From an uncultured archaeon (lineage in GTDB: Archaea > Asgardarchaeota > Jordiarchaeia > Jordiarchaeales > Jordiarchaeaceae): 12,132 nt of DNA. Position numbers and translations under genes: made by a program. Within the stretch, counting starts at the first letter, position 1, and every line of letters starts with the position of its first letter. The stretch lies in the NCBI GenBank assembly GCA_964510585.1, contig CAZECW010000148.1, positions 1 to 12,132 on the forward strand, in the 5' to 3' direction. A model generated the notes under the pieces. That model was not told where the DNA came from, did not search any database, and worked only from the letters and a program-made list of their open reading frames with translations. Shown here piece after piece: positions 1-12,132 of the stretch.

Positions 1-11
1 ATCAGCAGGGT

Positions 12-146
12 CAGCAAAACATAAATGGGCAGGATGAGAATAACAGTTTGGAGTAGTGTTTCTGGCATTTTTATCACTAGTTATTTACTTGCAGAAGCAC
101 TACTCCAATTTTTCGGTTCAAATTGCACCAGAAACTTTTTATGCCC
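12..146 (+). repeat. Copy 1 of a >=135-bp hairpin-containing non-coding repeat; inverted partner at 11996-12132
   Basis: Manual alignment to the reverse complement of 11996-12132 gives about 112 matches over about 138 columns (~80%). Shared blocks include CATAAATGGG, TGAGAAT, TTGGAG, ATCACT, GAAGCACTACTCCAAT, TTTCGGTTCAAA and AAACTTTTTAYGCCC. Internal stem 48-64/92-108. Confidence 0.93.
130..142 (+). promoter_or_regulatory. Candidate archaeal BRE/TATA promoter (AGAAAC-TTTTTAT) for the dehydrogenase-ior-acd operon, lying inside the repeat end
   Basis: Purine-rich run followed by a T-rich TATA-like box about 80 bp upstream of the first start codon. It resembles AGAAGAC-TTTTATA upstream of the thiolase gene (minus strand, 10445-10458). 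Confidence 0.45.
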
Positions 147-207
147 TTTGCCAAAAAATATTTCTTTAACGTTTCTAATTGAATTATAAAGGATTTCTAA
201 CTGTTTT

Positions 208-212
208 GGAGG
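208..212 (+). promoter_or_regulatory. Shine-Dalgarno GGAGG
   Basis: GGAGG lies 8 nt before an in-frame TTG at 221, which supports 221 rather than 179 as the start. Confidence 0.7.
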
Positions 213-220
213 AATCTTGG

Positions 221-1192
221 TTGGGTAAAAAGCTTCTGGTTACGGGTATGGATTTTCTTCTGGATTGGGTTAAGCAGCATATAAAGAGTGCGGAAATAGT
301 TTGTACTTCTGATGTTTCTGAGGAGAATCTATGCCAGATGGTTAAGGATGCTGATGGAATACTGTACATGCAGGCTTTGAGTTATCCCATTACTAGGAAA
401 ATTATTGAGTCTGGTAAAAAGTTGAGGTTCATAAGTTCGGCGGGTGTGGGTTATGAACGCATCGACGTTAAGGCTGCCACGGATAATGGGGTAGTGGTAA
501 TGAATATGCCTGTGGGTACAACTGTGTCTGTGGCGGAACACACTATAGCTCTGATACTTGCGTGCGCAAAGAATCTGGTCAAGGCCCACGAAAACGTGGT
601 TAAAGGAGGATGGAGACTTTTAGCTATGGGAGTTGAATTGTGGAATAAGACTCTGGGAATAATTGGTTTTGGCAGAATAGGAAGAGAAGTGGTTAAAAGG
701 ATGCGGGGATTTGAGATGAATATCTTAGTGTACGACCCATACGTGAAGGAGGATGAAATCAAAAATTTGGGGGGCAAAAAAGTGGACTTGGAAACGCTAC
801 TTAAGGAATCAGATGTAGTCTCGATACATTCACCCTTAACCAAAGAAACCGAGGGACTAATAGGCGAGAAGGAACTGGGACTAATGAAGCCAACAGCTAT
901 CATGGTAAATACCGCCAGGGGGGAACTAATAGACGAAGATGCGCTTATTAAGGCGTTAAAGGAAAGGCGGATAAGCTACGCGGGTCTAGATGTTTTTCGA
1001 AATGAACCCATAAACAAGGATAATCCCCTACTCACCTTGGACAATGTGGTTCTGACGCCGCACATGGCGGTTCAAACATTCGACGCGGTAGTGAGAATGA
1101 TGAATCAAAATGGTATCCAAGTCGAAAAAGCTTTAAACGGAATTTATGAAAATGTGGTAAACCCCGAGGTTTTAACGAAAATGAAAAAATAA
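221..1192 (+). CDS. NAD-dependent D-isomer-specific 2-hydroxyacid dehydrogenase (SerA/glyoxylate reductase-like, no ACT domain)
   Basis: Motifs GVGYERID, SVAEH, Rossmann GIIGFGRIG, YDPY, and the catalytic Arg-Glu-His set in NTARG, LDVFRNEP and TPHMA. Start moved from TTG179 to TTG221 because of the SD. Confidence 0.9.
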   Translation: MGKKLLVTGMDFLLDWVKQHIKSAEIVCTSDVSEENLCQMVKDADGILYMQALSYPITRKIIESGKKLRFISSAGVGYERIDVKAATDNGVVVMNMPVGTTVSVAEHTIALILACAKNLVKAHENVVKGGWRLLAMGVELWNKTLGIIGFGRIGREVVKRMRGFEMNILVYDPYVKEDEIKNLGGKKVDLETLLKESDVVSIHSPLTKETEGLIGEKELGLMKPTAIMVNTARGELIDEDALIKALKERRISYAGLDVFRNEPINKDNPLLTLDNVVLTPHMAVQTFDAVVRMMNQNGIQVEKALNGIYENVVNPEVLTKMKK

Positions 1193-1195
1193 TTT

Positions 1196-1201
1196 GGAGG
1201 T
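1196..1201 (+). promoter_or_regulatory. Shine-Dalgarno GGAGGT for iorA
   Basis: GGAGGT lies just upstream of ATG1210, in a 17-bp intergenic gap. Confidence 0.75.
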
Positions 1202-1209
1202 AAAAGCGT

Positions 1210-3129
1210 ATGAGTTTAGAGGTTGGATTGGATGCTCCGGGGAAAAAGGTTCTTTTGATGGGAAACGAAGCTGTGGCCAGAGGGGCACTGGAAGGAAACT
1301 GTCAGTTTGCTGCTTCCTACCCTGGAACACCCGCTTCCGAAATATTAGAGACTATGGCTCGTTTGGCAAAGGATTTTGAAATATACGCTCAGTGGTCAAC
1401 AAATGAGGCGGCTGCTTTCTGGGCTGGAGCTGGAGCCACTTATTGTGGCTTGAGGTCAATGGTTTCGGCGAAACATCATGGTGTAGCGTGGATGACTGAT
1501 CAACTTATCCACATCTCTCACTGGCAAATTGGCAAAGGAGGGCTCGTCATAGTCATTGGAGACGACCCGAAGGGACATAGTTCAGCTAATGAGTACGATT
1601 CCAGAAATTTGGCGTCTAGAGTTTTTGAGATTCCCATTTTGGAGCCCGCGGATCCCCAAGAATCCAAAGAGTTTACTAGAATGGCGTTTGATTTTTCCGA
1701 AAAACTGAAACTTCCCATATATGTGAGGATGACCACCAGAGTGTGTCATGCGAGCGGGGATGTGATTCTGGGAGAGATTCCAAAAGAAAAGAGGGTTCCC
1801 AGCTATTATCCAACATTCTTTGAATTGGGAATGGAAATGCTCATGGCAAAGGGGTGGGTGGATGTATCCTACCTGCATGAAAGATTACACACAAAAAAGC
1901 TAAAAGAAGCTGCTGAGATATCGGAAAACTTTCCAGGCAACAAATTAGAGATGGGTGGAGGTGAGGAGATAGGGATAATTGCGTCTGGGGTTTGCCGCCA
2001 CTATGTAGAAGAGGCTGTAGACAAGCTCGGAGTTAAACCAGCGCTCCTACATTTGGGAATGTCTTTTCCACTACCCAAAGAAAAGGTGTCAAAACTTCTA
2101 AAATCCGTAAATAAAGTGATAGTTTTTGAGGAGACAGACCCAGTTATAGAAACTGAGGTTAGAGCATTGGCAGAGGACGAATCCTTGGGTGTCGAAATCT
2201 TGGGAAAAAGAAATGAGTTTACTCCCATCTCTGGCGAATTGAATCCCCTAGACGTCATGATTGTTCTTTCAAAAGCCTACGGTAAACCTCTCCCCATAAT
2301 ACCAGAAAGGAAGGAACTTAGAGAAATGATTAAGCCCTACGAGGGAATGAGGCGAATAGTTTTGTGCGCCGGCTGCCCCCATAGAGCATCCGCATATGCG
2401 GTGAAGCTAGCGGCCAAAACCTTTAAAGGAGGGTCCTATATTGGGATAGGGGATATTGGTTGCTATGGTATGATGGGGCCTCCGCCTCTAATGGCCTTCA
2501 CTCTAACTAACTGTATGGGGGGAAGCATAGGACTGGCAAACGGGATAGCCAAAACGGGAATAGACCAACCAGTGGTAGCATTCATAGGGGACTCCACCTT
2601 CTACCATGCAGGTATACCCCCTCTGATAAACGCCACCTTCAACAATGCCAAATTCACTACAATCGTCCTAGATAACCAAGTGACTGCATTAACTGGTTTT
2701 CAACCCCACCCTGGATCTGGATTCACCGCTATGGGCGATAAGACTAAGCCAGTGAAAATAGAGGATATAGCAAGGGCATGTGGAATAGAGTTTGTAGAAG
2801 TAGTGGATCCATACAATATCAAAAAGGCGGCTGAAGTAATTAAAGCTGCTTTTGAGCATCCTGGGGCATCCCTTGTGATATGCAGGAGGCTGTGTTCAAC
2901 GGAGGCCCTAAGAAGGAGGAGAAGCGAGGGATTACCGCCACCAAAGCCCTTCATGGTAGACCCAGATTTGTGTAATGGATGCAAAATATGTATAAATGAG
3001 TTTGGTTGCCCAGCAATGATCTGGGATGAGAAAACAAAGAAGGTATCAATAGATGAAACCCTCTGCATAGGTTGTGCGGTCTGCACCCAAGTATGCCCAG
3101 AAAGAGCACCAAAAGCAGTTAAGGAGTGA
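1210..3129 (+). CDS. iorA: Indolepyruvate:ferredoxin oxidoreductase subunit alpha
   Basis: LLMGNEAVARGALE, YPGTPASEI, LCAGCPHR, GDIGCY, TPP-binding IGDSTFYHAG/LDN, and two C-terminal 4Fe-4S motifs (CNGCKIC...CP, CIGCAVCTQVCP). Confidence 0.93.
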   Translation: MSLEVGLDAPGKKVLLMGNEAVARGALEGNCQFAASYPGTPASEILETMARLAKDFEIYAQWSTNEAAAFWAGAGATYCGLRSMVSAKHHGVAWMTDQLIHISHWQIGKGGLVIVIGDDPKGHSSANEYDSRNLASRVFEIPILEPADPQESKEFTRMAFDFSEKLKLPIYVRMTTRVCHASGDVILGEIPKEKRVPSYYPTFFELGMEMLMAKGWVDVSYLHERLHTKKLKEAAEISENFPGNKLEMGGGEEIGIIASGVCRHYVEEAVDKLGVKPALLHLGMSFPLPKEKVSKLLKSVNKVIVFEETDPVIETEVRALAEDESLGVEILGKRNEFTPISGELNPLDVMIVLSKAYGKPLPIIPERKELREMIKPYEGMRRIVLCAGCPHRASAYAVKLAAKTFKGGSYIGIGDIGCYGMMGPPPLMAFTLTNCMGGSIGLANGIAKTGIDQPVVAFIGDSTFYHAGIPPLINATFNNAKFTTIVLDNQVTALTGFQPHPGSGFTAMGDKTKPVKIEDIARACGIEFVEVVDPYNIKKAAEVIKAAFEHPGASLVICRRLCSTEALRRRRSEGLPPPKPFMVDPDLCNGCKICINEFGCPAMIWDEKTKKVSIDETLCIGCAVCTQVCPERAPKAVKE

Positions 3130-3136
3130 AAAGGTA

Positions 3137-3724
3137 ATGAAGAAAAATTTTGATATACTGATAGCGGGAATAGGTGGACAGGGAGGAGTTCTAACTTCCA
3201 GAATAATAGGAGACGCGGCAATTGAGGCAGGTTACCACGTAACCGTAGGCGAAACATTTGGAGCCAGCCAAAGAGGAGGCTCAGTTATCACTCATATTAG
3301 GCTTGGGAAGGAGAGAATTTACGGTCCGCTCATACCCGAGGCGAGTGGTGACGCAGTGATTGGGTTGGAGCCACTTGAATCACTTAAGTGCGCGGTGAAA
3401 TTTCTTAAAACTAACGGGATAATAGTGACCAATGAGCGGCCAGTACTGCCACCGGACAAAAATTATCCCGAACTGGATAAAATATTTGAATCCGCAAGGA
3501 AAATTCCCGCACAACTATTCTCAATTGATAGCATTAAGCTGGCTAAAGAAGCAGGAGACATACTCTCGTCAAACATTGTTATGATAGGCGCAGCTTATGC
3601 GGTAAAGGCGCTCCCCATAGAAGAGGAACATTTGAAGAATTCCATCCGAAGTAAACTCCCCAAAGCAGTCGATTTAAATCTTAAGGCATTTGAATTAGGG
3701 AAAAAGGCGATGGAGAAGAAGTGA
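3137..3724 (+). CDS. iorB: Indolepyruvate:ferredoxin oxidoreductase subunit beta (POR gamma-like)
   Basis: ILIAGIGGQGG, ETFGASQRGGSV, LEPLE, NIVMIGA, NLKAF. Directly follows iorA. ATG3137 is preferred over 3074, which would overlap iorA. Confidence 0.92.
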   Translation: MKKNFDILIAGIGGQGGVLTSRIIGDAAIEAGYHVTVGETFGASQRGGSVITHIRLGKERIYGPLIPEASGDAVIGLEPLESLKCAVKFLKTNGIIVTNERPVLPPDKNYPELDKIFESARKIPAQLFSIDSIKLAKEAGDILSSNIVMIGAAYAVKALPIEEEHLKNSIRSKLPKAVDLNLKAFELGKKAMEKK

Positions 3725-5157
3725 TGTCTGAAGAAAACCGGATTGTCCAGCAACTCACCCCCCTTTTTAAACCCTCGTCTGTTGCCATAATAGGAGCCTC
3801 CTCCACCCCCATGAAGTTCCCAACCTGGGTCACATCCACCGCCCTAAAAAGCGGTTTCCGGGGTAAAATATATCTTGTAAATCCCAGAACCAAAGAAATC
3901 CAAGGAATAAAAACCTACCCCAGCATATTAGACATAAAGGATAACGTGGACCTGGCGGCAATAATAATACCCGCGGAACTAATTCCGGGCGTGATGGAGG
4001 AATGCGTTGAGAAGGGTGTTAAGGCTGCAATCATATTTTCTTCGGGTTTCAGAGAAATAGGGGAAAAGGGAATAAAAAGGGAAGAGGAAATACTCAGAAT
4101 AGCTAGGAGAGGGAACATTAGGCTGGTTGGCCCCAACTGTATGGGAATCTACAGCTCAGAAGTAAACCTCACCCTATCCATAATTTCATTTAAGGAGAAG
4201 GGAGAGATAGCATTCATAACTCAGAGCGGCGGCTACGGCATAGAGATATGCTCCTCGGCTATGTCTAAGGGCATAAATTTTAGCAAGTTCATAAGCGTGG
4301 GCGACAAAATAGACATCCAAGACTATGAGTACCTGGAGTACCTTTACCAAGACCCAGACACCAAAGCAATTATGATGTACATAGAGGGAATAGAGAAGGG
4401 AAGGGAATTCCTAAACGCTGCAAAAAAGGTAACTCGAAAGAAGCCCATATTTGTAATAAAAATTGGAAGAACAATGGAAGGCAGCAGAGCCGCAAGCTCC
4501 CACACTGGCGCACTAGCTGGAAAAGACGCTATATACGACGCAGTTTTCAAGCAGAGCGGAATAATAAGAGCATATGATGTGGAAGAACTCTTCGACTATC
4601 TAAAAGCCTACCTGACTCTACCCCTACCAAAGGGAAACCGCGTGGGACTACTCGTGGGAAGCGGCGGGGTGGGCTGCGCAGCCACAGATAAATGCATAGA
4701 GTTGGGTCTACAGGTTCCAGAAATAAGCGAAGAAAACAAAAAAATGTTAAAAACTATTCTCCCAGAATTCGCATCCGTCAGGAACCCAGTAGACTTCACA
4801 GCATCCGGAGCACAGGGAATATTCACAAACACCCAAGTACTCAAAAAGCTCTTTGCAGACCCAAACATTGACGCCTGGTTTTTCGGAGGCTTCACCAGCT
4901 CATCCATAGCAGAAATAAAAGACATAATAGAACAATTCAGACCAGTCATAGACAAAATAAATTCCAAAGATTTAATGGGCGAACTCAAAGTGCCTCTAGT
5001 TGGATCCATGGATGAAAACGATATAGTTAGACCAATTATGGAAAAAATGTTCGGCGCAGTATTCTACCCAACACCCGAAAGAGCGATCCGAGCGATATCC
5101 GCACTACACAGATACGGAAAATATTTGGAAATGATCAAAAAATGTGTGAACGGTTGA
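3721..5157 (+). CDS. acdA: Acetate/acyl-CoA ligase (ADP-forming) alpha subunit
   Basis: FKPSSVAIIGAS CoA-binding fold, VGPNCMG, AFITQSGG, phospho-His motif SHTGALAG, NPVDFT. GTGATG start overlaps the iorB stop (ATG3724 is the alternative start). Confidence 0.9.
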   Translation: MMSEENRIVQQLTPLFKPSSVAIIGASSTPMKFPTWVTSTALKSGFRGKIYLVNPRTKEIQGIKTYPSILDIKDNVDLAAIIIPAELIPGVMEECVEKGVKAAIIFSSGFREIGEKGIKREEEILRIARRGNIRLVGPNCMGIYSSEVNLTLSIISFKEKGEIAFITQSGGYGIEICSSAMSKGINFSKFISVGDKIDIQDYEYLEYLYQDPDTKAIMMYIEGIEKGREFLNAAKKVTRKKPIFVIKIGRTMEGSRAASSHTGALAGKDAIYDAVFKQSGIIRAYDVEELFDYLKAYLTLPLPKGNRVGLLVGSGGVGCAATDKCIELGLQVPEISEENKKMLKTILPEFASVRNPVDFTASGAQGIFTNTQVLKKLFADPNIDAWFFGGFTSSSIAEIKDIIEQFRPVIDKINSKDLMGELKVPLVGSMDENDIVRPIMEKMFGAVFYPTPERAIRAISALHRYGKYLEMIKKCVNG

Positions 5158-5159
5158 CT

Positions 5160-5200
5160 GTACTGATATAAATGTTATAAAAATAAAGGGGGAGGGAAGG
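5160..5200 (-). terminator. Possible pyrimidine/oligo-T archaeal terminator after the SDR gene
   Basis: The minus strand reads CCCTTCCCTCCCCCTTTATTTTTATAACATTTAT directly after the SDR stop, in a 47-bp convergent gap. Confidence 0.4.
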
Positions 5201-5204
5201 GTTT

Positions 5205-6158
5205 CTAGCTTAGGGCACTCATTATTATTCCCGCTAATTCTTCTCTTGGGGGCTGTTTTGCTATTAGTTCTTTTAGTTTTGGCCCTATTTCTTCCGGCTT
5301 CCAGAATCCTGGTGGAGAGCGTTTCACGGGTTCGCTGGATTTCCAGCTGTGCAGCAGCCACATGTTCCCGCCAACCACTCTTATAACTTGGCCGGTTACA
5401 TCTTTAGCCTCGTCGGAAGCTAGGTAAACCACAAGGGGAGCCATAGCTTCGGGACTCAAGACGTCGTATCCATACTTCTTTTCGAAATCCTCCTTAGTTC
5501 CCATCATAGGAGCCAGTGAGGGCGTTGCCTCGGTTGTTAGTCTGGTTCGGGCAACAGGTACTATAACATTGGCTGTTACCCCGTATTTCGCCATTTCTTT
5601 GGCCACTATGAGGGTAAAGGCGGTTATTCCGGCTTTCGCGGCTCCGTAGTTGCTCTGACCTGGATTATATAGTAGTCCAGCGTCGGAGGTGGTGTTTATT
5701 ATTCTTCCTGCTACGGGTTTTCCTTCTTTGGACTGGGCTCTCCAGTAGTTGCAGGCGTGTCTGGTGCAGTTGAATGTTCCCTTGAGGTGAACCCCTATTA
5801 CTGCGTCGAAATCTTCCTCTTCCATGTTGAATATCATTTTGTCTCTAAGGATTCCCGCATTGTTGACCAGTATGTCCAATTTGCCAAAGGTGCTAATGGC
5901 TTGATCAATTATTCTTTTTGCTCCCTGGAAGCTTGTGACGCTCTCATAGTTGGGGGCGGCTTCCCCTCCCATCTTCTTGATTTCGTTTACTACGTCGTCG
6001 GCTGGACCGTGGAACTCGCCTTTTCCATTGTGGCTTCCGCCCATATCGTTTACTATGACTTTTGCTCCGTGTTTTGCTAGAAGTAGGGCTTCTTCTCGTC
6101 CTAAACCTCTTCCAGCGCCAGTAACTATAGCTACTTTACCTTTAAGTGATATTGGCAT
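5205..6158 (-). CDS. Short-chain dehydrogenase/reductase, MFE-2 (3R)-hydroxyacyl-CoA dehydrogenase / PRK07791-like
   Basis: TGAGRGLG, VIVNDMGG, LVNNAGILRD, VHLKGTF, RIINTTSDAG, GQSNYGAAK. SD GGTGA at 6166-6170 (minus strand), 7 nt before the ATG. Confidence 0.88.
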   Translation of the reverse strand: MPISLKGKVAIVTGAGRGLGREEALLLAKHGAKVIVNDMGGSHNGKGEFHGPADDVVNEIKKMGGEAAPNYESVTSFQGAKRIIDQAISTFGKLDILVNNAGILRDKMIFNMEEEDFDAVIGVHLKGTFNCTRHACNYWRAQSKEGKPVAGRIINTTSDAGLLYNPGQSNYGAAKAGITAFTLIVAKEMAKYGVTANVIVPVARTRLTTEATPSLAPMMGTKEDFEKKYGYDVLSPEAMAPLVVYLASDEAKDVTGQVIRVVGGNMWLLHSWKSSEPVKRSPPGFWKPEEIGPKLKELIAKQPPREELAGIIMSALS

Positions 6159-6240
6159 TTTTATATCACCCTAAAAAGCAACTATTAATAATTCGATTAC
6201 CATTTAGATAACTGATTCATAAGCATTTCGTCTACTTTAA

Positions 6241-6275
6241 GAGGGCAGCGTAGAAATGTTGGATTCTACTCCCTC
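6241..6275. other. Imperfect hairpin in the divergent SDR/ATPase intergenic region
   Basis: GAGGG(6241-6245) pairs with CCCTC(6271-6275), and GTAGAA(6250-6255) pairs with TTCTAC(6264-6269); 8-nt loop. Confidence 0.4.
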
Positions 6276-6396
6276 ACTTCAAGGTTCTAAATTGAAAAAG
6301 AAGCTATATAAACGCTTATTTTGGAAGTGAAATCGAAAAATTCTAAATTGCTTCCTGCCCTTTTTTCTGCGGATAAAATATTAATACAATACAGAG

Positions 6397-6440
6397 TTAT
6401 ATAGAATTTATGTAAAGTTGCCTTCATGGTTTAGAGGAGG
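6397..6440 (+). promoter_or_regulatory. Candidate TATA box (TTATATA, 6397-6403) and SD (GGAGG, 6436-6440) for the P-type ATPase
   Basis: TTATATA preceded by ACAGAG; GAGGAGG about 30 bp downstream; in-frame ATA 8 nt after the SD. Confidence 0.55.
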
Positions 6441-6475
6441 ACTCCAGTATAATTGAGATTAAAAACTGGCACAGT

Positions 6476-9163
6476 ATGCCTATTGAGGAAATAATGAAAA
6501 TTCTGGAAACCAGCCCCAAAGGCCTTACCAAGGAGGAGGCCTTCAGAAGACTGGAATTGTATGGCCCCAACAAGGTTCAAGAAGTGAGAAGACTTTCTCC
6601 CCTGAAACTTTTTTTGGAACAGTTTCGTAACGCCCTGAACTACATCCTCATTTTGGCCGTTACAATCTCAATAATCCTTGGAAATACCTTGGACGCTATG
6701 ATAATCATTGTGATACTTTTATTCAACGCCACTTTAGGGTTTGTTCAGGAGTACCGCTCAGAAAAAGCCCTGGAAGCCCTTAAAGAGTTATCGGCACCCA
6801 AAACCATAGTTGTACGAGAAGGAAAAGAGAGAGAAATCAAAACCGAAGAACTGGTTCCCGGAGACCTAGTAATCCTCAATACTGGAGATAAAGTTCCCGC
6901 AGACATACGCCTCATCACCTCTGTGAGGCTGAGGGCCCTAGAATCCATACTCACCGGCGAATCTGGCTCTGAAGAAAAAGTTACCGGAGAGCTACCAGAA
7001 GATACACCCCTAGTAGACCGCTTAAACATGGTCTACTCCGGAACAGTCATCACAGGAGGTAGAGGCTCAGGGATAGTTGTAGCCACCGGCATGAACACCG
7101 AGGTTGGAAAGATCGCGAAAGAAATTTCAGTAGCTGGTGAAGAAAAAACACCTCTCCAGAAGAAAATATCACGCCTAGCAGTTTATCTGGCAGTAATCGC
7201 CTTCATATTTGCAGGCATCCAAGCGATTCTAGCATTTGTGAGGGGTATACCTACATCGGATATACTTTTATTGGCTCTCGCCTCAGTGATTCACTTCATT
7301 CCAGAAGGCCTCATAGCTGTGGTAACCATAGTTCTAGTCATTGGCGTCAGAATAATGGCCAGGAGGAACGCCATAATTAGAAACTTGCAGGCGGTGGAAA
7401 CTCTTGGCTCCGCCACTGTGATATGCACAGATAAAACGGGTACACTCACCAAAAACCAGATGACAGTACGAGTAATATATTTGAATGGTGAAGTCATAGA
7501 GGTAACCGGTGAGGGCTACACGCCGGTAGGTGAATTCCGAAAAAATGGAGCGGTAATAAATCCAAAGGAGAACCCCAACCTCCTACTGTTCCTCAGAGCC
7601 ATGGCTCTGTGTAATGATGCCCGTCTTGTCTCAGAGAACGGCAGATACTCTATAGTTGGGGATCCCACTGAGGGGGCGCTGGTGGTTGCGGCAGCCAAGG
7701 GAGGAGTTAACAAGGAGGAGGAAGAAAAAGAAAACCCTAGAATAGATGAGATTCCCTTTGAGTCTGAACTGGCCTGTATGGCTACGGTTCACGAATTTAC
7801 AGAGGAGGAAAAATATGTTTATGCTAAGGGCTCCCCTGAACGCATGATTAGCCTCTGCAACGAGATATACATAAGAGATCAGATTATTCCAATTACCGAT
7901 GAGCTTCGGAAACAGGTGTTGGAGGTAAGCCACGAGTTCGCATCTAAAGGTTACAGGGTCCTAGGACTTTCCTATAGGGTTGTTGGCAGTTCAAAGTACC
8001 GTTTGGCTAGAGAGGACTGCGGGAAAGACCTGGTTTTTCTGGGATTGGTGGGAATGGTGGATCCCCCCAGAAGAGAGGTCATAGAAGCGGTTGAAAAGTG
8101 TAAAACTGCTGGCATAAAGGTTGTCATGATTACTGGAGACCACCGGGAAACAGCTCGAGCCATAGCCCAAGAAGTGGGAATAATGACCAAAAAAGACCTG
8201 ATACTGGAGGGCAGAGAACTAGACAATATTCCAGAGGAGGAGTTTGAAAAAATTGTGGATTCAGTTAAAGTATATGCCCGAAATGAACCCCGCCACAAGC
8301 TCAGAATAGTGAAAGCCCTAAGGAAAAAGGGGCACATTGTGGCCATGACTGGTGACGGCGTAAATGATGCTCCCGCGTTAAAGGAGGCGGACATAGGTAT
8401 CGCTATGGGAATTACGGGAACACAGCTTGCCAAGGAAACATCCAACATGGTTCTGGCTGATGATAACTTTGCATCCATAGTGGCAGCAATAGAGGAGGGA
8501 CGAACCTCATTTAACAATTTGAGAAGAGTGGTACTTTACCTGATAACAACCAGCATCGCTGGAGGCTTCATCCTACTCTCCTCTCTGCTCCTAGGATTGC
8601 CCCTACCCTTCCTTCCTTTGCAGATACTTTGGATTAACTTGGTTACAGATGGTATCTGCGACAAAACCCTGGCAATTGAACCCCGGTATAGAGACGTCCT
8701 CAAAGATCCCCCCAGACCCCCAAAAGAGAGTATTGTTAACAGAGGAGTAATCTACCAGATAGCATTCCTATCAGCAATTATGATTATTGGAACAATGTGC
8801 GTCTACTACTTTTCCCTCCAATCCCTAGGATTGTCATACATCTGGAGGGGGTACGAGGAGCCTCGAACAATGGCTTTCGCAACCATTATCTTCTTCCAGC
8901 TTTTCAATGCTTTGAACATAAGGTCTCGGGAGAACTCCATTTTCAAAATAGGACTCCTCAAAAACAAATATTTCGCAGTAGGGTTTATTTTCTCAATGAT
9001 TTTGAACTTCTCCATAGTTTATGTACCGTTCTTCCACCAGCTGTTTGAAATCACACCACTGAACATTTACGATTGGCTCATAGTGTTCTTGGTAAGCAGC
9101 ACCATCCTCCTGATAGAAGAAATAAGAAAGGCTGTAGCACCAAAACTATTCACAAAGAGATAA
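6476..9163 (+). CDS. P-type cation-transporting ATPase, type IIA-like (Ca2+-ATPase family); true start probably ATA at 6449
   Basis: TGES (A domain), PEGL (M4), DKTGT phosphorylation motif, KGSPE, DPPR, MITGD, TGDGVNDAPALK, QILWINLVTDG (M6), and hydrophobic segments consistent with a 10-TM architecture. Confidence 0.95.
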   Translation: MPIEEIMKILETSPKGLTKEEAFRRLELYGPNKVQEVRRLSPLKLFLEQFRNALNYILILAVTISIILGNTLDAMIIIVILLFNATLGFVQEYRSEKALEALKELSAPKTIVVREGKEREIKTEELVPGDLVILNTGDKVPADIRLITSVRLRALESILTGESGSEEKVTGELPEDTPLVDRLNMVYSGTVITGGRGSGIVVATGMNTEVGKIAKEISVAGEEKTPLQKKISRLAVYLAVIAFIFAGIQAILAFVRGIPTSDILLLALASVIHFIPEGLIAVVTIVLVIGVRIMARRNAIIRNLQAVETLGSATVICTDKTGTLTKNQMTVRVIYLNGEVIEVTGEGYTPVGEFRKNGAVINPKENPNLLLFLRAMALCNDARLVSENGRYSIVGDPTEGALVVAAAKGGVNKEEEEKENPRIDEIPFESELACMATVHEFTEEEKYVYAKGSPERMISLCNEIYIRDQIIPITDELRKQVLEVSHEFASKGYRVLGLSYRVVGSSKYRLAREDCGKDLVFLGLVGMVDPPRREVIEAVEKCKTAGIKVVMITGDHRETARAIAQEVGIMTKKDLILEGRELDNIPEEEFEKIVDSVKVYARNEPRHKLRIVKALRKKGHIVAMTGDGVNDAPALKEADIGIAMGITGTQLAKETSNMVLADDNFASIVAAIEEGRTSFNNLRRVVLYLITTSIAGGFILLSSLLLGLPLPFLPLQILWINLVTDGICDKTLAIEPRYRDVLKDPPRPPKESIVNRGVIYQIAFLSAIMIIGTMCVYYFSLQSLGLSYIWRGYEEPRTMAFATIIFFQLFNALNIRSRENSIFKIGLLKNKYFAVGFIFSMILNFSIVYVPFFHQLFEITPLNIYDWLIVFLVSSTILLIEEIRKAVAPKLFTKR

Positions 9164-9187
9164 AAAATATTTTTGAGAAAAAAAGAT
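9161..9187. terminator. Possible bidirectional oligo-T terminator between the convergent ATPase and thiolase genes
   Basis: 12-bp palindrome AAAAATATTTTT (9163-9174) plus an A7 run (T7 on the minus strand) in a 50-bp convergent gap. Confidence 0.45.
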
Positions 9188-9213
9188 GTTCCCTACCTTC
9201 GCTACGAAGAGAT

Positions 9214-10371
9214 TTATCTCTGGAAAATGTGCACAACAATATTATTCCCAAAACCGCCGAAATTGACTGATAATCCTGTTTCGCATTTGGGCACTTGGCG
9301 TTTTCCAGCCTCCCCTCTTAGTTGCCAAGTGATTTCAACCGCCTGAGCCACACCGGTGGCCCCAAGAGGATGACCTCTGGCCTTAAGTCCTCCGCTGGGA
9401 TTTATGGGTAGTTCTCCATCAAGCCAAGTTTTTCCCTCCTCAACGGCTTTGGCTCCCTCTCCCTTCTTAAAGAAACCCACATCCTCTGATTGCACAATCT
9501 CCAGTATGGTGAAGGCGTCATGTAGCTCTGCAAAATCTATGTCCTGCGGTTTGAGCTTAGCCATAGAATATGCCTTTTGAGCAGCCTCCCTCAAAGCTTC
9601 CAAAACAGTTGGGTCCTCACGCTCAGCAACCATCTGAATATCTGTAGCTTGCCCAAACCCCTTAATCAGCACTGGGGTATCACTGTACTCTCTAGCTTTA
9701 TCCGCTGCGCAAAGCACTAAGGAAGCAGCCCCGTCACTCACGGGGCAAACATCGAACAGGCGTAGTGGATCTGCAATAATTGGTGAGGTCAACGCCTTTT
9801 CCAGGGTTATTTCTTTCTGGAAGTGAGCGTAAGGGTTGTGGGCCCCATTTTTGTGGTTTTTAACCGCCACCAATGAGAGCAGCTCTCTCTTAACATTATA
9901 CTTCTTCAAATATAACTGGGCAAGAAGCCCCCCAAGGGAGGGTAAAGTAACACCATACTTGTACTCCGCAGTTGGGTGTGTTAAAGTCGCCACCGAAGAA
10001 CTAACCTTGGGATTGGGTATGGAAGTCATTTTTTCCACACCAACAACCAAAACAAGGTTGGAAACACCAGATGCGATGGCTTGGAAACCTTCCTTTGTGG
10101 CTGAGCCGCCACTCGCCGGACCATTTTCTATTTTGTCTGCGGCTGCAGGTAGCAGATTGAGTCTATCGGCAAGCACACTTGCAATACCAGTCATCCTATT
10201 GAATTCTCCAGAAAACATGTTACCCACATAAACCGCGTCAAAATCACTCTCAGAAGCATTGGCGTCAGAAATCGCCCTGAAACTAGCCTCCACCATAAGA
10301 TCAGTAAGGGACTTGTCTTCAAGCTGCCCAAACCGCGTCATGCCGCAACCAATAATGGCAACACCACGCAT
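9214..10371 (-). CDS. SCP2-type thiolase-fold protein lacking the canonical catalytic cysteines
   Basis: VAIIGCGMTRFG, VGVEKM, PVSDGAASLVL, ELHDAF, NPSGGLKARGHPLGATG. The CxS position reads ENGPAS. ATG10371 lies 8 nt after GGGGG(10380-10384); TTG10386 and ATG10377 are alternative starts. Confidence 0.9.
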   Translation of the reverse strand: MRGVAIIGCGMTRFGQLEDKSLTDLMVEASFRAISDANASESDFDAVYVGNMFSGEFNRMTGIASVLADRLNLLPAAADKIENGPASGGSATKEGFQAIASGVSNLVLVVGVEKMTSIPNPKVSSSVATLTHPTAEYKYGVTLPSLGGLLAQLYLKKYNVKRELLSLVAVKNHKNGAHNPYAHFQKEITLEKALTSPIIADPLRLFDVCPVSDGAASLVLCAADKAREYSDTPVLIKGFGQATDIQMVAEREDPTVLEALREAAQKAYSMAKLKPQDIDFAELHDAFTILEIVQSEDVGFFKKGEGAKAVEEGKTWLDGELPINPSGGLKARGHPLGATGVAQAVEITWQLRGEAGKRQVPKCETGLSVNFGGFGNNIVVHIFQR

Positions 10372-10444
10372 AAACATAACCCCCAAAAATTAAATAACCA
10401 CCATACAAAAATGATTATGCTTTTTGAATTCTTAGTTCACTTAC

Positions 10445-10458
10445 TATAAAAGTCTTCT
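10445..10458 (-). promoter_or_regulatory. Candidate BRE/TATA for the thiolase gene
   Basis: The minus strand reads AGAAGACTTTTATA about 75 bp upstream of the start. Confidence 0.45.
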
Positions 10459-10604
10459 CATAAACAAGGTTGCGACCAAAAATTGGAGCATTTTTTTAAG
10501 GCATCATGTATTTAGCCGCTGGAAATATAGATTTATTCGGTTCCCCCTTCTCTTTGAAAAGATAGCTTCTGGTGGTGCCTTTTAAATTAGCGTATGTTTT
10601 AAGG

Positions 10605-11108
10605 CTACCAAATCTTTTTTTCATATTTCAGAGTGCGTTTAATTCTAGATTTTTTTTGCATTTTTGCTAGTTCTTTCTCAAAGTCTTCAATTGATAGGAG
10701 GCTATCCACGCTGTCCTTTAGAGCTTGGGGAATTGGCTGCCTGTAGACGTAGTATTTTCTGACGTCCTGTACGATTCTTTTTGAGCGTTCTGAGAGAATT
10801 GGAGCGTAACGGTAAAGTGCATCATTCTCTTCCTTATCCACAACGAAACTAAGTGTACCGATGCGCTCTTTTCCCCTAGCTTTCTCATCGGGAATGGAGA
10901 AATAATACACAAAAGCGCTCTTCTGTTCCTCTTGAATGGGAATTATGGATTCCCCCTCATCCACATGGTGACTTAAAGCAACCGCCCCAATCATTGTCTT
11001 CAAAGCAATTTTATCAGCAGTCTCCTTTTCGATTCCCTTAAAATAAACACTGGTGGGACCAACATCCTCGTCCACAATGGCCAGACAGATTCCCCTTTTT
11101 TCAAACAA
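10605..11108 (-). CDS. Small uDENN/longin-domain protein (folliculin/SMCR8 N-terminal-like), putative Asgard eukaryotic signature protein
   Basis: N-terminal beta-strand followed by VDEDVGP (the FxxxxGP motif of uDENN domains), and YYFSIPDEKARGKERIGTLSFVV, matching the DxxARGxxR motif of the FLCN/SMCR8 longin domain. Basic C-terminal tail. Recognised by motif recall, not by search. Confidence 0.7.
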   Translation of the reverse strand: MFEKRGICLAIVDEDVGPTSVYFKGIEKETADKIALKTMIGAVALSHHVDEGESIIPIQEEQKSAFVYYFSIPDEKARGKERIGTLSFVVDKEENDALYRYAPILSERSKRIVQDVRKYYVYRQPIPQALKDSVDSLLSIEDFEKELAKMQKKSRIKRTLKYEKKIW

Positions 11109-11239
11109 GGCACCACTTCCGCTTTTCCCTCAAACACAAGCCCAAAGGGAATCAAATATTTTAGAACTTATACAACCAGTAACCTTAATACTTTTGTATA
11201 AACGTAAATATAAACTTGTTGAAAAAACTTACTTTTGAG

Positions 11240-11995
11240 AGCATATACTATAACAAGTCTATTCATAGTGTTAGGATAAACTATAAACACATTTAAAAGG
11301 GTTAACATCCCCTCTGCTTAATCTACGCACTACACATAAGATTAATCATTGTTCTCTAATCTTGAAATATGCGTATTTTCCTTTTGCTACAGTAAAAATA
11401 TCAATTTATGATATGAGTTGAGAGAGAACAAAAATTACTTATTAATAATTGTTGGTAATCCATTAGCTCTGCTTAATTGTTCATCTAAAAAGTTATTAAT
11501 AGTCATAATTGATGCTTCTCACAACTTATTTAGGATTTTTCTCTAAAAAGATTTAAGTTTTTGAATCAAAACGGGCGTAAAACCTTTCTTTTTTGGCTCA
11601 TTTTTGTTTAAGGAGCTTTTTCTTTGCATAAATTGTTCAAAAACTTATCAAAAATATATTTATTTAAGTAGTTACTCAGTTGAGGGTTGCTTTATGCGCG
11701 GATTGCACCTGTGGCAATGTGAACTCTAAGTTTTTACCCTGAATTGGTAAAAACAGGACATTTTGTTCCCATTTCCCAAAAAATGAGAAAAAAAGATTAA
11801 AATTAGAAAAAATAAGGCAAAAAAGTCAATCTACCACAACCTCCACACAAAAAACTACCCAACCGTATAAGTTCTATTATTATCTGGATTTTCGATTACA
11901 GCAGCGAATTAGGTTAAAAACACCAAACAATTTAATTGGATTCTACATCGTCTATTATTGAATTTTATAGTGAAAATACATAATTACGAAAAATT
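11240..11995. other. Long AT-rich gene-free intergenic region
   Basis: No ORF of 60 aa or more in the six-frame track. Many A/T runs; contains short palindromes and repeats. Confidence 0.75.
11730..11754. other. Perfect 9-bp hairpin (possible terminator or protein-binding site)
   Basis: GTTTTTACC-ctgaatt-GGTAAAAAC. Confidence 0.5.
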
Positions 11996-12132
11996 GGGCG
12001 TAAAAAGTTTTTAGTGCAGTTTTGAACCGAAAGATTGGAGTAGTGCTTCAGCACAAAGTAGTAACAGTGATCAAAATGACAGAAGCACCACTCCAATTGG
12101 TCATTCTCACTCTACCCATTTATGCTTTACTA
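11996..12132 (-). repeat. Copy 2 (inverted) of the hairpin-containing repeat; runs to the window edge
   Basis: The reverse complement aligns to 12-146 at ~80%. Internal stem 12097-12082/12049-12034. Confidence 0.93.

Follow-up and report, generated by a model that had tools for sequence, protein, structure and literature searches.

Two IS66-family insertion sequences as the very probable source of the inverted repeats at both ends of an Asgard archaeal contig

The locus and its terminal repeats

The stretch of DNA analysed here (the window; 12,132 nucleotides) comes from an uncultured archaeon of the Jordiarchaeaceae, in the Asgardarchaeota, and is the whole of contig C148 (1-12132) in a 217-contig, 3.78-Mb metagenome-assembled genome (MAG), called G000 below. 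The archaeal origin of the MAG is supported by its TBP genes and by a control family with matches only in archaea; the bin contains no SSU rRNA. Its two ends carry an inverted repeat, the copies of which are very probably the left ends of two separate members of a multicopy insertion sequence (IS) of the IS66 family, at which the assembly broke, with the 12-kb block between them being normal chromosome that is neither mobile nor invertible. By BLASTN, positions 12-146 of the forward strand align with positions 11996-12132 of the reverse strand at 81.2% identity over 138 columns (E 3e-28), and a repeat search resolves the match into three collinear arms, 13-78/12066-12131 (80%), 90-122/12021-12053 (94%) and 120-146/11996-12022 (85%). 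In both copies the homology ends abruptly at ...ACTTTTTAYGCCC on the inner side and extends to the contig edge on the outer side. An initial annotation of the window had described inverted repeats of ~135 bp and ~80% identity, sharply bounded on the inside and apparently homologous to the window edge on the outside of the second copy, and it was right on each of these points.

The same annotation took the repeats to be non-coding, which they are not. Each holds a 23-nt terminal inverted repeat (TIR), a hairpin at a start codon and, directed outward, the opening 19-22 codons of an IS66-family transposase. The left repeat (1..146, minus strand) is the left (IRL) end of a 1,879-bp IS66-family element, here IS copy 1, with element nucleotide 1 at window position 146. 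The contig breaks at element nucleotide 146, and the remainder of the element is found on the metagenome contig L098, with which the window has an exact 141-nt overlap, and at G000:C129:6408-6700. The TIR of copy 1, GGGCATAAAAAGTTTCTGGTGCA when read inward, occupies 124..146 on the minus strand and agrees with the opposite terminus, that on C129, in 20 of its 23 positions. The first 22 transposase codons (MPETLLQTVILILPIYVLLTLL...) occupy 1..68 on the minus strand and run off the contig.

The right repeat (11996..12132, plus strand) is the left end of IS copy 2, which belongs to another subfamily about 81% identical to copy 1. Here the contig breaks at element nucleotide 137, and the opposite end of the element lies at G000:C158:21977-22117. 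Alignment of the termini places the TIR of copy 2, GGGCGTAAAAAGTTTTTAGTGCA, at 11996..12018 on the plus strand, and the N-terminal frame gives the first 19 transposase codons (MTEAPLQLVILTLPIYALL...) at 12076..12132, also on the plus strand.

Between the repeats, a Pfam scan identifies eight long open reading frames (ORFs). In order, these encode a 2-hydroxyacid dehydrogenase (179-1192, plus strand), the TPP/Fer4 subunit of a 2-oxoacid:ferredoxin oxidoreductase (1210-3129, plus), a POR gamma-type subunit of 2-oxoacid:ferredoxin oxidoreductase (3074-3724, plus), an ADP-forming acyl-CoA synthetase (3721-5157, plus), an SDR protein (5205-6158, minus), a P-type cation ATPase (6476-9163, plus), a thiolase (9214-10386, minus) and a Folliculin/longin-like protein of 167 aa (10605-11108, minus). 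No transposase or recombinase was found among the eight by the Pfam scan, and the earlier description of the interior as metabolic and transport genes plus a longin-like gene, free of such enzymes, agrees with this result. The Folliculin/longin-like gene has several paralogues in congeners, three of them in tandem at G005 C1:639083-642402 and others in G003:C82 and G003:C17.

Reconstruction of the element and the assembly break

When the 81-aa ORF tail of another IS terminus (a B end, defined below), taken from G003:C179, was used as query in an exhaustive HMMER search, the matches were P0002 (180 aa), P0003 (392 aa) and P0006 (535 aa), three proteins that each lie on a 1.7-1.95-kb contig consisting of the element alone. 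P0002 ends in 34 residues that also form the ORF tail on C129, without a difference. The JGI metagenome contig L098 (1,722 bp) links the window to that same contig: its nucleotides 1-141 are window positions 1-141, and its nucleotides 1582-1722 are the end of C129, in each case over exactly 141 nt and at 100% identity. Exact 141-nt overlaps on both sides indicate that the repeat collapsed into its own unitig in a k=141 de Bruijn graph. The window holds 146 rather than 141 nucleotides of the left IS because the twin on C214 differs at element position 5 (A/G), and it holds 137 nucleotides of the right IS because the twin on C44 has 4 flanking nucleotides in common with it (137 + 4 = 141). Joining the overlaps yields the full left element of 1,879 bp. 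The right repeat aligns at 91% identity with the start of L097, a near-complete element of 1,867 bp.

Contig breaks at multicopy repeats in de Bruijn metagenome assemblies are a textbook artefact, with which the present case agrees in full: a unique contig stops k bases inside the collapsed repeat, and the repeat contig itself is absent from the bin. The IS body, at less than 2 kb, is shorter than the smallest binned contigs. The IS66 transposase domain PF03050 is absent from the G000 bin, as is expected if the IS bodies are unbinned.

The same ~140-nt sequence, termed the A end, also occurs near the ends of contigs C214, C44, C22, C77, C126, C60 and C59. The A ends at contig termini face outward without exception, with a sharp terminus 70-249 nt from the break. 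Four further types of contig end have only the last ~23 nt in common with the A end: type B (C129/C149), type C (C46/C62/C65/C158/C178), type D (C90/C168/C171) and type E (C145/C202). Altogether, 19 of the 434 contig ends in the MAG stop within this IS superfamily. Termini were also counted with the pattern GCACNARARACTTTTTAYGCCC, allowing at most 2 mismatches and using the reversed pattern as a control. The pattern occurs 28 times in G000 and, among its congeners, 91 times in G004, 24 in G003, 8 in G002 and 5 in G001. It has 0 matches in the closed congener G005, and the reversed control has 0 in all of these genomes. The A end is restricted to this genus among 41 relatives searched.

Several other occurrences of the terminus were set aside. 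On C43, two termini face inward across 7 kb, but they do not delimit an element; the stretch is a defence island with solo termini. The island (G000:C43, locus L031, 1246-13183; solo IS termini at 4455, 6376 and 13406) encodes an R.HinP1I-like endonuclease, an Eco57I/N6 methylase, an AAA_21 ATPase, a Toprim/DUF4276 protein, a radical-SAM protein, a ResIII helicase and an SDH-type protease. The internal copies in G004:C151 and G003:C79 lack a transposase and represent solo ends that have decayed.

Synteny and target-site duplications

The genes of the window (179..11108) are collinear with G003:C21:13417-25383 at 88-91% identity. The collinearity with this contig of the sister species G003 extends beyond the window (86-91%), running from C129 (145-6165) through the window (183-11014) to C158 in reverse (20901 downward), and it gives the contig order C129(+), C148(+), C158(-). 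Synteny therefore predicts that the left element is made up of the B end on C129 and the A end of the window, and the right element of the A end of the window and the C end on C158. These pairings were derived from synteny alone, before the flanks were inspected for duplications. Each predicted pair proves to be flanked by its own perfect 8-bp target-site duplication (TSD). The TSD of IS copy 1, TTTGCCAA, is at window 147..154, with its second copy at G000:C129:6400-6407; the TSD of IS copy 2, GAAAAATT, is at window 11988..11995, and its second copy adjoins the IS terminus on C158 (G000:C158:21976 and below). A separate perfect duplication for each IS indicates that each inserted independently at its present site, and that the block is ancestral chromosome.

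These results bear on two readings in which the block would be a genetic unit. The first is a composite transposon, in which the inverted IS pair and the 12-kb metabolic block would be mobile together, as in Tn5 or Tn10; the initial annotation had offered a kindred model, with the repeats as TIRs of a non-autonomous, cargo-carrying element. It is true that two related, inverted IS copies flank a gene block, and that two IS ends recognised by one transposase could in principle be used in this way. However, an 8-bp TSD spans each IS, rather than one TSD lying at the outer ends of the pair, and the block and its neighbours C129 and C158 are in their ancestral context, as given by G003:C21; the cargo-element model is refuted by the same two observations. 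The two IS copies are moreover of different subfamilies, with ends ~81% identical and different right ends (B versus C), the left IS is frameshifted, and the genome holds no second copy of the block, only paralogue-level matches. A composite transposon is therefore very improbable.

The second reading, also among the models first put forward, is an invertible segment, in which recombination between the inverted copies would flip the 12-kb block. Inverted homologous sequences do flank it, and homologous recombination between inverted IS copies is a known source of inversions. Yet no recombinase is found among the eight ORFs in or adjoining the block, the two copies are of different subfamilies and only ~81% identical, and the unbranched unitig L098 joins the end type at the left of the window to the end type of C129 only. 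The TSDs match in the syntenic, non-inverted arrangement, and the chimeric IS expected from an inversion is not seen. With the TSDs, the neighbourhood conserved in the sister species and the unbranched unitig all against it, inversion has hardly any claim to explain the present arrangement.

Two differences from G003 were noted along the syntenic stretch. The gap between the acyl-CoA synthetase and SDR genes is ~1.08 kb in G003 (G003:C21:18360-19443) versus 48 bp in the window (5128-5176), an indel. The right-hand IS sits in ~2 kb of AT-rich DNA (window 11109-11995 plus G000:C158:20901-21976), with 34% GC versus 43% for the window, and this DNA is without a counterpart in G003, which has 43 bp there. 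It is non-coding on the window side and has a 252-codon open frame on the C158 side. Within it, window positions ~11667-11876 form a different short dispersed repeat, without an Rfam match, of which copies at 75-83% identity occur on C184, C38, C195 and C27.

The transposase and its family

The initial annotation could not match the repeats to a recognised family, but the reconstructed element is a member of the IS66 family. PF03050 (DDE_Tnp_IS66) matches P0006 at 89.1 bits, P0003 at 84.9 and the first ORF of L098 at 70.2, above the gathering score of 23.1 and with E values of 2.5e-19 to 4e-25, and the motifs VDE[ST]G, ADFW and STNxAE are conserved. The NCBIfam IS66 transposase profile NF033517 was aligned over positions 4-378 of 387 (E 7.5e-50). 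Since the repeats proved to be parts of paralogous transposase genes that extend beyond the window, the novelty first claimed for them falls. The element itself is new and has no name, a somewhat divergent representative of an IS family already known.

The transposase ATG is at element nucleotide 79, which corresponds to window 68-66 on the minus strand in the left copy and to window 12076 on the plus strand in the right copy. The frame from this ATG (MPETLLQTVILILPIYVLL...) aligns with the N-terminus of the intact 535-aa P0006, and tblastn with residues 2-342 of P0006 gives a match that begins at the same nucleotide. A doubt about this outward ORF, raised by an amino acid identity between the window copies (~68%) below the nucleotide identity (~81%), was dropped, given that full-length homologues align it as the N-terminus. 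The protein begins with a hydrophobic, transmembrane (TM)-like segment of ~20 residues and a basic, Gly-rich stretch, followed by a CxWCG...RCPxCG zinc ribbon and then the DDE motifs. The TM-like segment is encoded at window 1-68 (minus strand), window 12076-12132 (plus strand), L096:70-150 and L099:~1234-1300, and it is unusual for a DDE transposase.

Transposase frames alone occupy the 1,879-bp element, at nucleotides 79-1691, and there are no accessory tnpA/tnpB ORFs. In L096 the transposase is one intact gene of 535 aa (P0006). L097 carries a frameshift near the N-terminus (nucleotides ~173-239), at a different site from that of the left IS, and the frameshifts, being at different sites, look like inactivating lesions rather than programmed shifts. 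Both G000 copies represented by unitig L098 would have the lesion of that unitig, near nucleotide 1113.

The ISBst12 group comprises single-ORF members of the IS66 family that produce an 8-bp direct repeat, and the ends of its member ISDge4 are GTGACT/GTAACT (PMC12898284). The present element resembles this group (ISBst12, ISDge4) in having a DDE_Tnp_IS66 domain, a single transposase ORF without tnpA/tnpB, an 8-bp TSD, imperfect TIRs of ~20-25 nt, a length below 2 kb and a zinc ribbon N-terminal to the DDE domain. It differs in that its TIRs start with GGGC(R)TAAAAAGT rather than GT(A/G)A, its protein is longer (~535 aa) and has the TM-like N-terminal segment, a covarying hairpin surrounds the Shine-Dalgarno (SD) motif and start codon, and the element has an archaeal host and a large family of ~224-bp derivatives. 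The GTAA start of IS66 TIRs, canonically GTAAGCG, is typical but not obligatory.

Six-frame searches for the transposase body, covering 151 genomes of the phylum, gave two matches and no more: a partial copy in G004 and, in G037, an IS66 homologue with 30% identity. A search of genome contigs for related loci with P0003 as query found no relative. The G037 homologue comes from a different family of the phylum; its N-terminus is hydrophobic as well, and it is bounded by perfect 23-nt TIRs of different sequence.

A hairpin around the start codon

A 17-bp hairpin is found in copy 1 at window 48..108 on the minus strand, with a folding energy of -22.1 kcal/mol by RNAfold, and the covariation alignment places its equivalent in copy 2 at 12034..12097 on the plus strand. 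The loop holds a GTGAT motif, like a Shine-Dalgarno sequence, and the transposase ATG, and the 3' arm is formed by codons 2-7. The hairpin was aligned across seven distinct copies, including the L096 lineage, in which the transposase is only 46-49% identical. In this alignment 89.7% of the stem cells are paired, versus 28-47% with the partner slid, and two-sided changes occur in 7 of the 17 stem pairs. For four of five measures, no more than 1 in 500 shuffles attained the values seen in the real alignment.

By analogy with the fold-back inhibition of IS10/IS50, the hairpin around the SD motif and ATG may control translation of the transposase. As in those elements, a stem-loop at the transposase-proximal end of the IS spans the translation-initiation region, and here it has been kept by compensatory changes. 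In contrast to IS10/IS50, the SD motif and ATG are in the loop and the 3' arm is on codons 2-7.

Short derivatives of the element

Inward-facing pairs of the terminus also enclose short elements without an ORF, here called MITEs (miniature inverted-repeat transposable elements). One of 223 bp, at G000:C120:2053-2275, is flanked on both sides by AAATTCGA, and a variant of 417 bp is found at G000:C44:3727-4143; the TIRs of this family are the 23-nt TIRs of the IS, and its targets are AT-rich. MITEs are few in G000, whereas more than 20 inward-facing pairs are found in G004 and none in the closed genome of G005. Among 20 pairs of ~224 bp from G004 (loci L051-L070), a perfect 8-bp TSD is found for 9, a 7-bp TSD for 2 and a TSD with one mismatch for 2. 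In addition, G000:C27:22025-22372 is a 348-bp internal-deletion derivative in which an A-type left end, with its hairpin decayed, directly adjoins a B-type right end, so A and B are opposite ends of a single element type. No TSD could be recognised around this derivative, which is probably old. A 17-mer resembling the TIR at window 11574 was considered as a MITE remnant and rejected, as it is not significant.

The existence of MITEs with identical TIRs, together with the covarying hairpin within the repeat, might suggest that the window repeats are themselves short non-autonomous elements of the MITE or REP kind, or a structured small RNA gene, rather than the ends of full-length IS copies; yet this is highly unlikely, given that the left repeat extends without mismatch over 141 nt into a 1.7-kb unitig bearing the transposase, the right repeat matches the start of a 1,867-bp element at 91% identity, and the open frame in both is the conserved N-terminus of the transposase, while cmscan of the whole window against Rfam at E<=1 gave 0 matches and ARAGORN 0 tRNA genes.

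Interpretation

The preferred and very probable reading is that of two independent insertions of a multicopy, single-ORF, ISBst12-like IS66 element of ~1.9 kb, with 23-nt TIRs that start with GGGC and 8-bp TSDs. Its multicopy status, TIRs, TSDs, contig order, k-mer overlaps, transposase family and hairpin covariation are matters of observation. The two copies, which would have moved by the usual DDE mechanism, inserted in opposite orientations into AT-rich intergenic sequence at the two flanks of an ordinary 12-kb stretch of chromosome, and both transposase genes read away from the block. Each subfamily has at least two near-identical copies, so that neither IS could be traversed by a k=141 de Bruijn assembler; the contig stops 137-146 nt into each of them, and the collapsed body of the IS, being under 2 kb, was left out of the bin.

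Several points weigh against this reading. An exact empty site in G003 could not be aligned, the intergenic DNA having diverged. For the right-hand IS, no body was obtained from the same metagenome, of which JGI 3300010289 appears to be the assembly, and the structure of that IS was inferred from its two ends, its TSD and the 91%-identical L097, which is from another dataset. The left IS is frameshifted near element nucleotide 1113 relative to the intact P0006 (L098:74-1147 and 1144-1686), and it may therefore be non-autonomous. The NF033517 score, at 170.1 bits, is just under the cutoff of 180, and the TIRs start with GGGC(A/G)TAAAAAG and not with the typical GTAA of IS66, so the element is a divergent member of the family.

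Of the models first proposed, the one that survives in part treated the repeats as members of a dispersed family or as ends of larger elements outside the window. The latter holds, and the identity of the window repeats as short MITE- or REP-like elements does not. The argument then made for that model, that a whole contig ending in repeats on both sides would favour it, was sound, given that the window is a whole contig and the repeat recurs at many contig ends. The repeats are indeed at both ends of the block, but to call the block bracketed is misleading, as the repeats merely mark where the assembler stopped inside two repeated elements.

Implications

A whole contig with inverted repeats at its two ends bears the signature of assembly breaks in a multicopy IS, and terminal inverted repeats of a contig are no proof of a mobile unit. 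The present repeats are an ordinary outcome of IS66-family insertion combined with short-read assembly. In this MAG, one IS superfamily explains ~4% of the contig breaks. As a by-product, the analysis provides a complete 1,879-bp archaeal element of the IS66 family and the MITEs derived from it, a resource for scaffolding the MAG (C129-window-C158).

The element could, tentatively, represent an undescribed archaeal subgroup of IS66/ISBst12, characterised by GGGC-type TIRs, a TM-like N-terminus, a hairpin that acts as a translational brake and a burst of ~224-bp MITEs in one congener; just as tentatively, the pair of inverted copies could at some later time mobilise or flip the acyl-CoA/2-oxoacid block of 12 kb. 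The covarying hairpin at the start codon offers a testable case of translational control of an IS in archaea.

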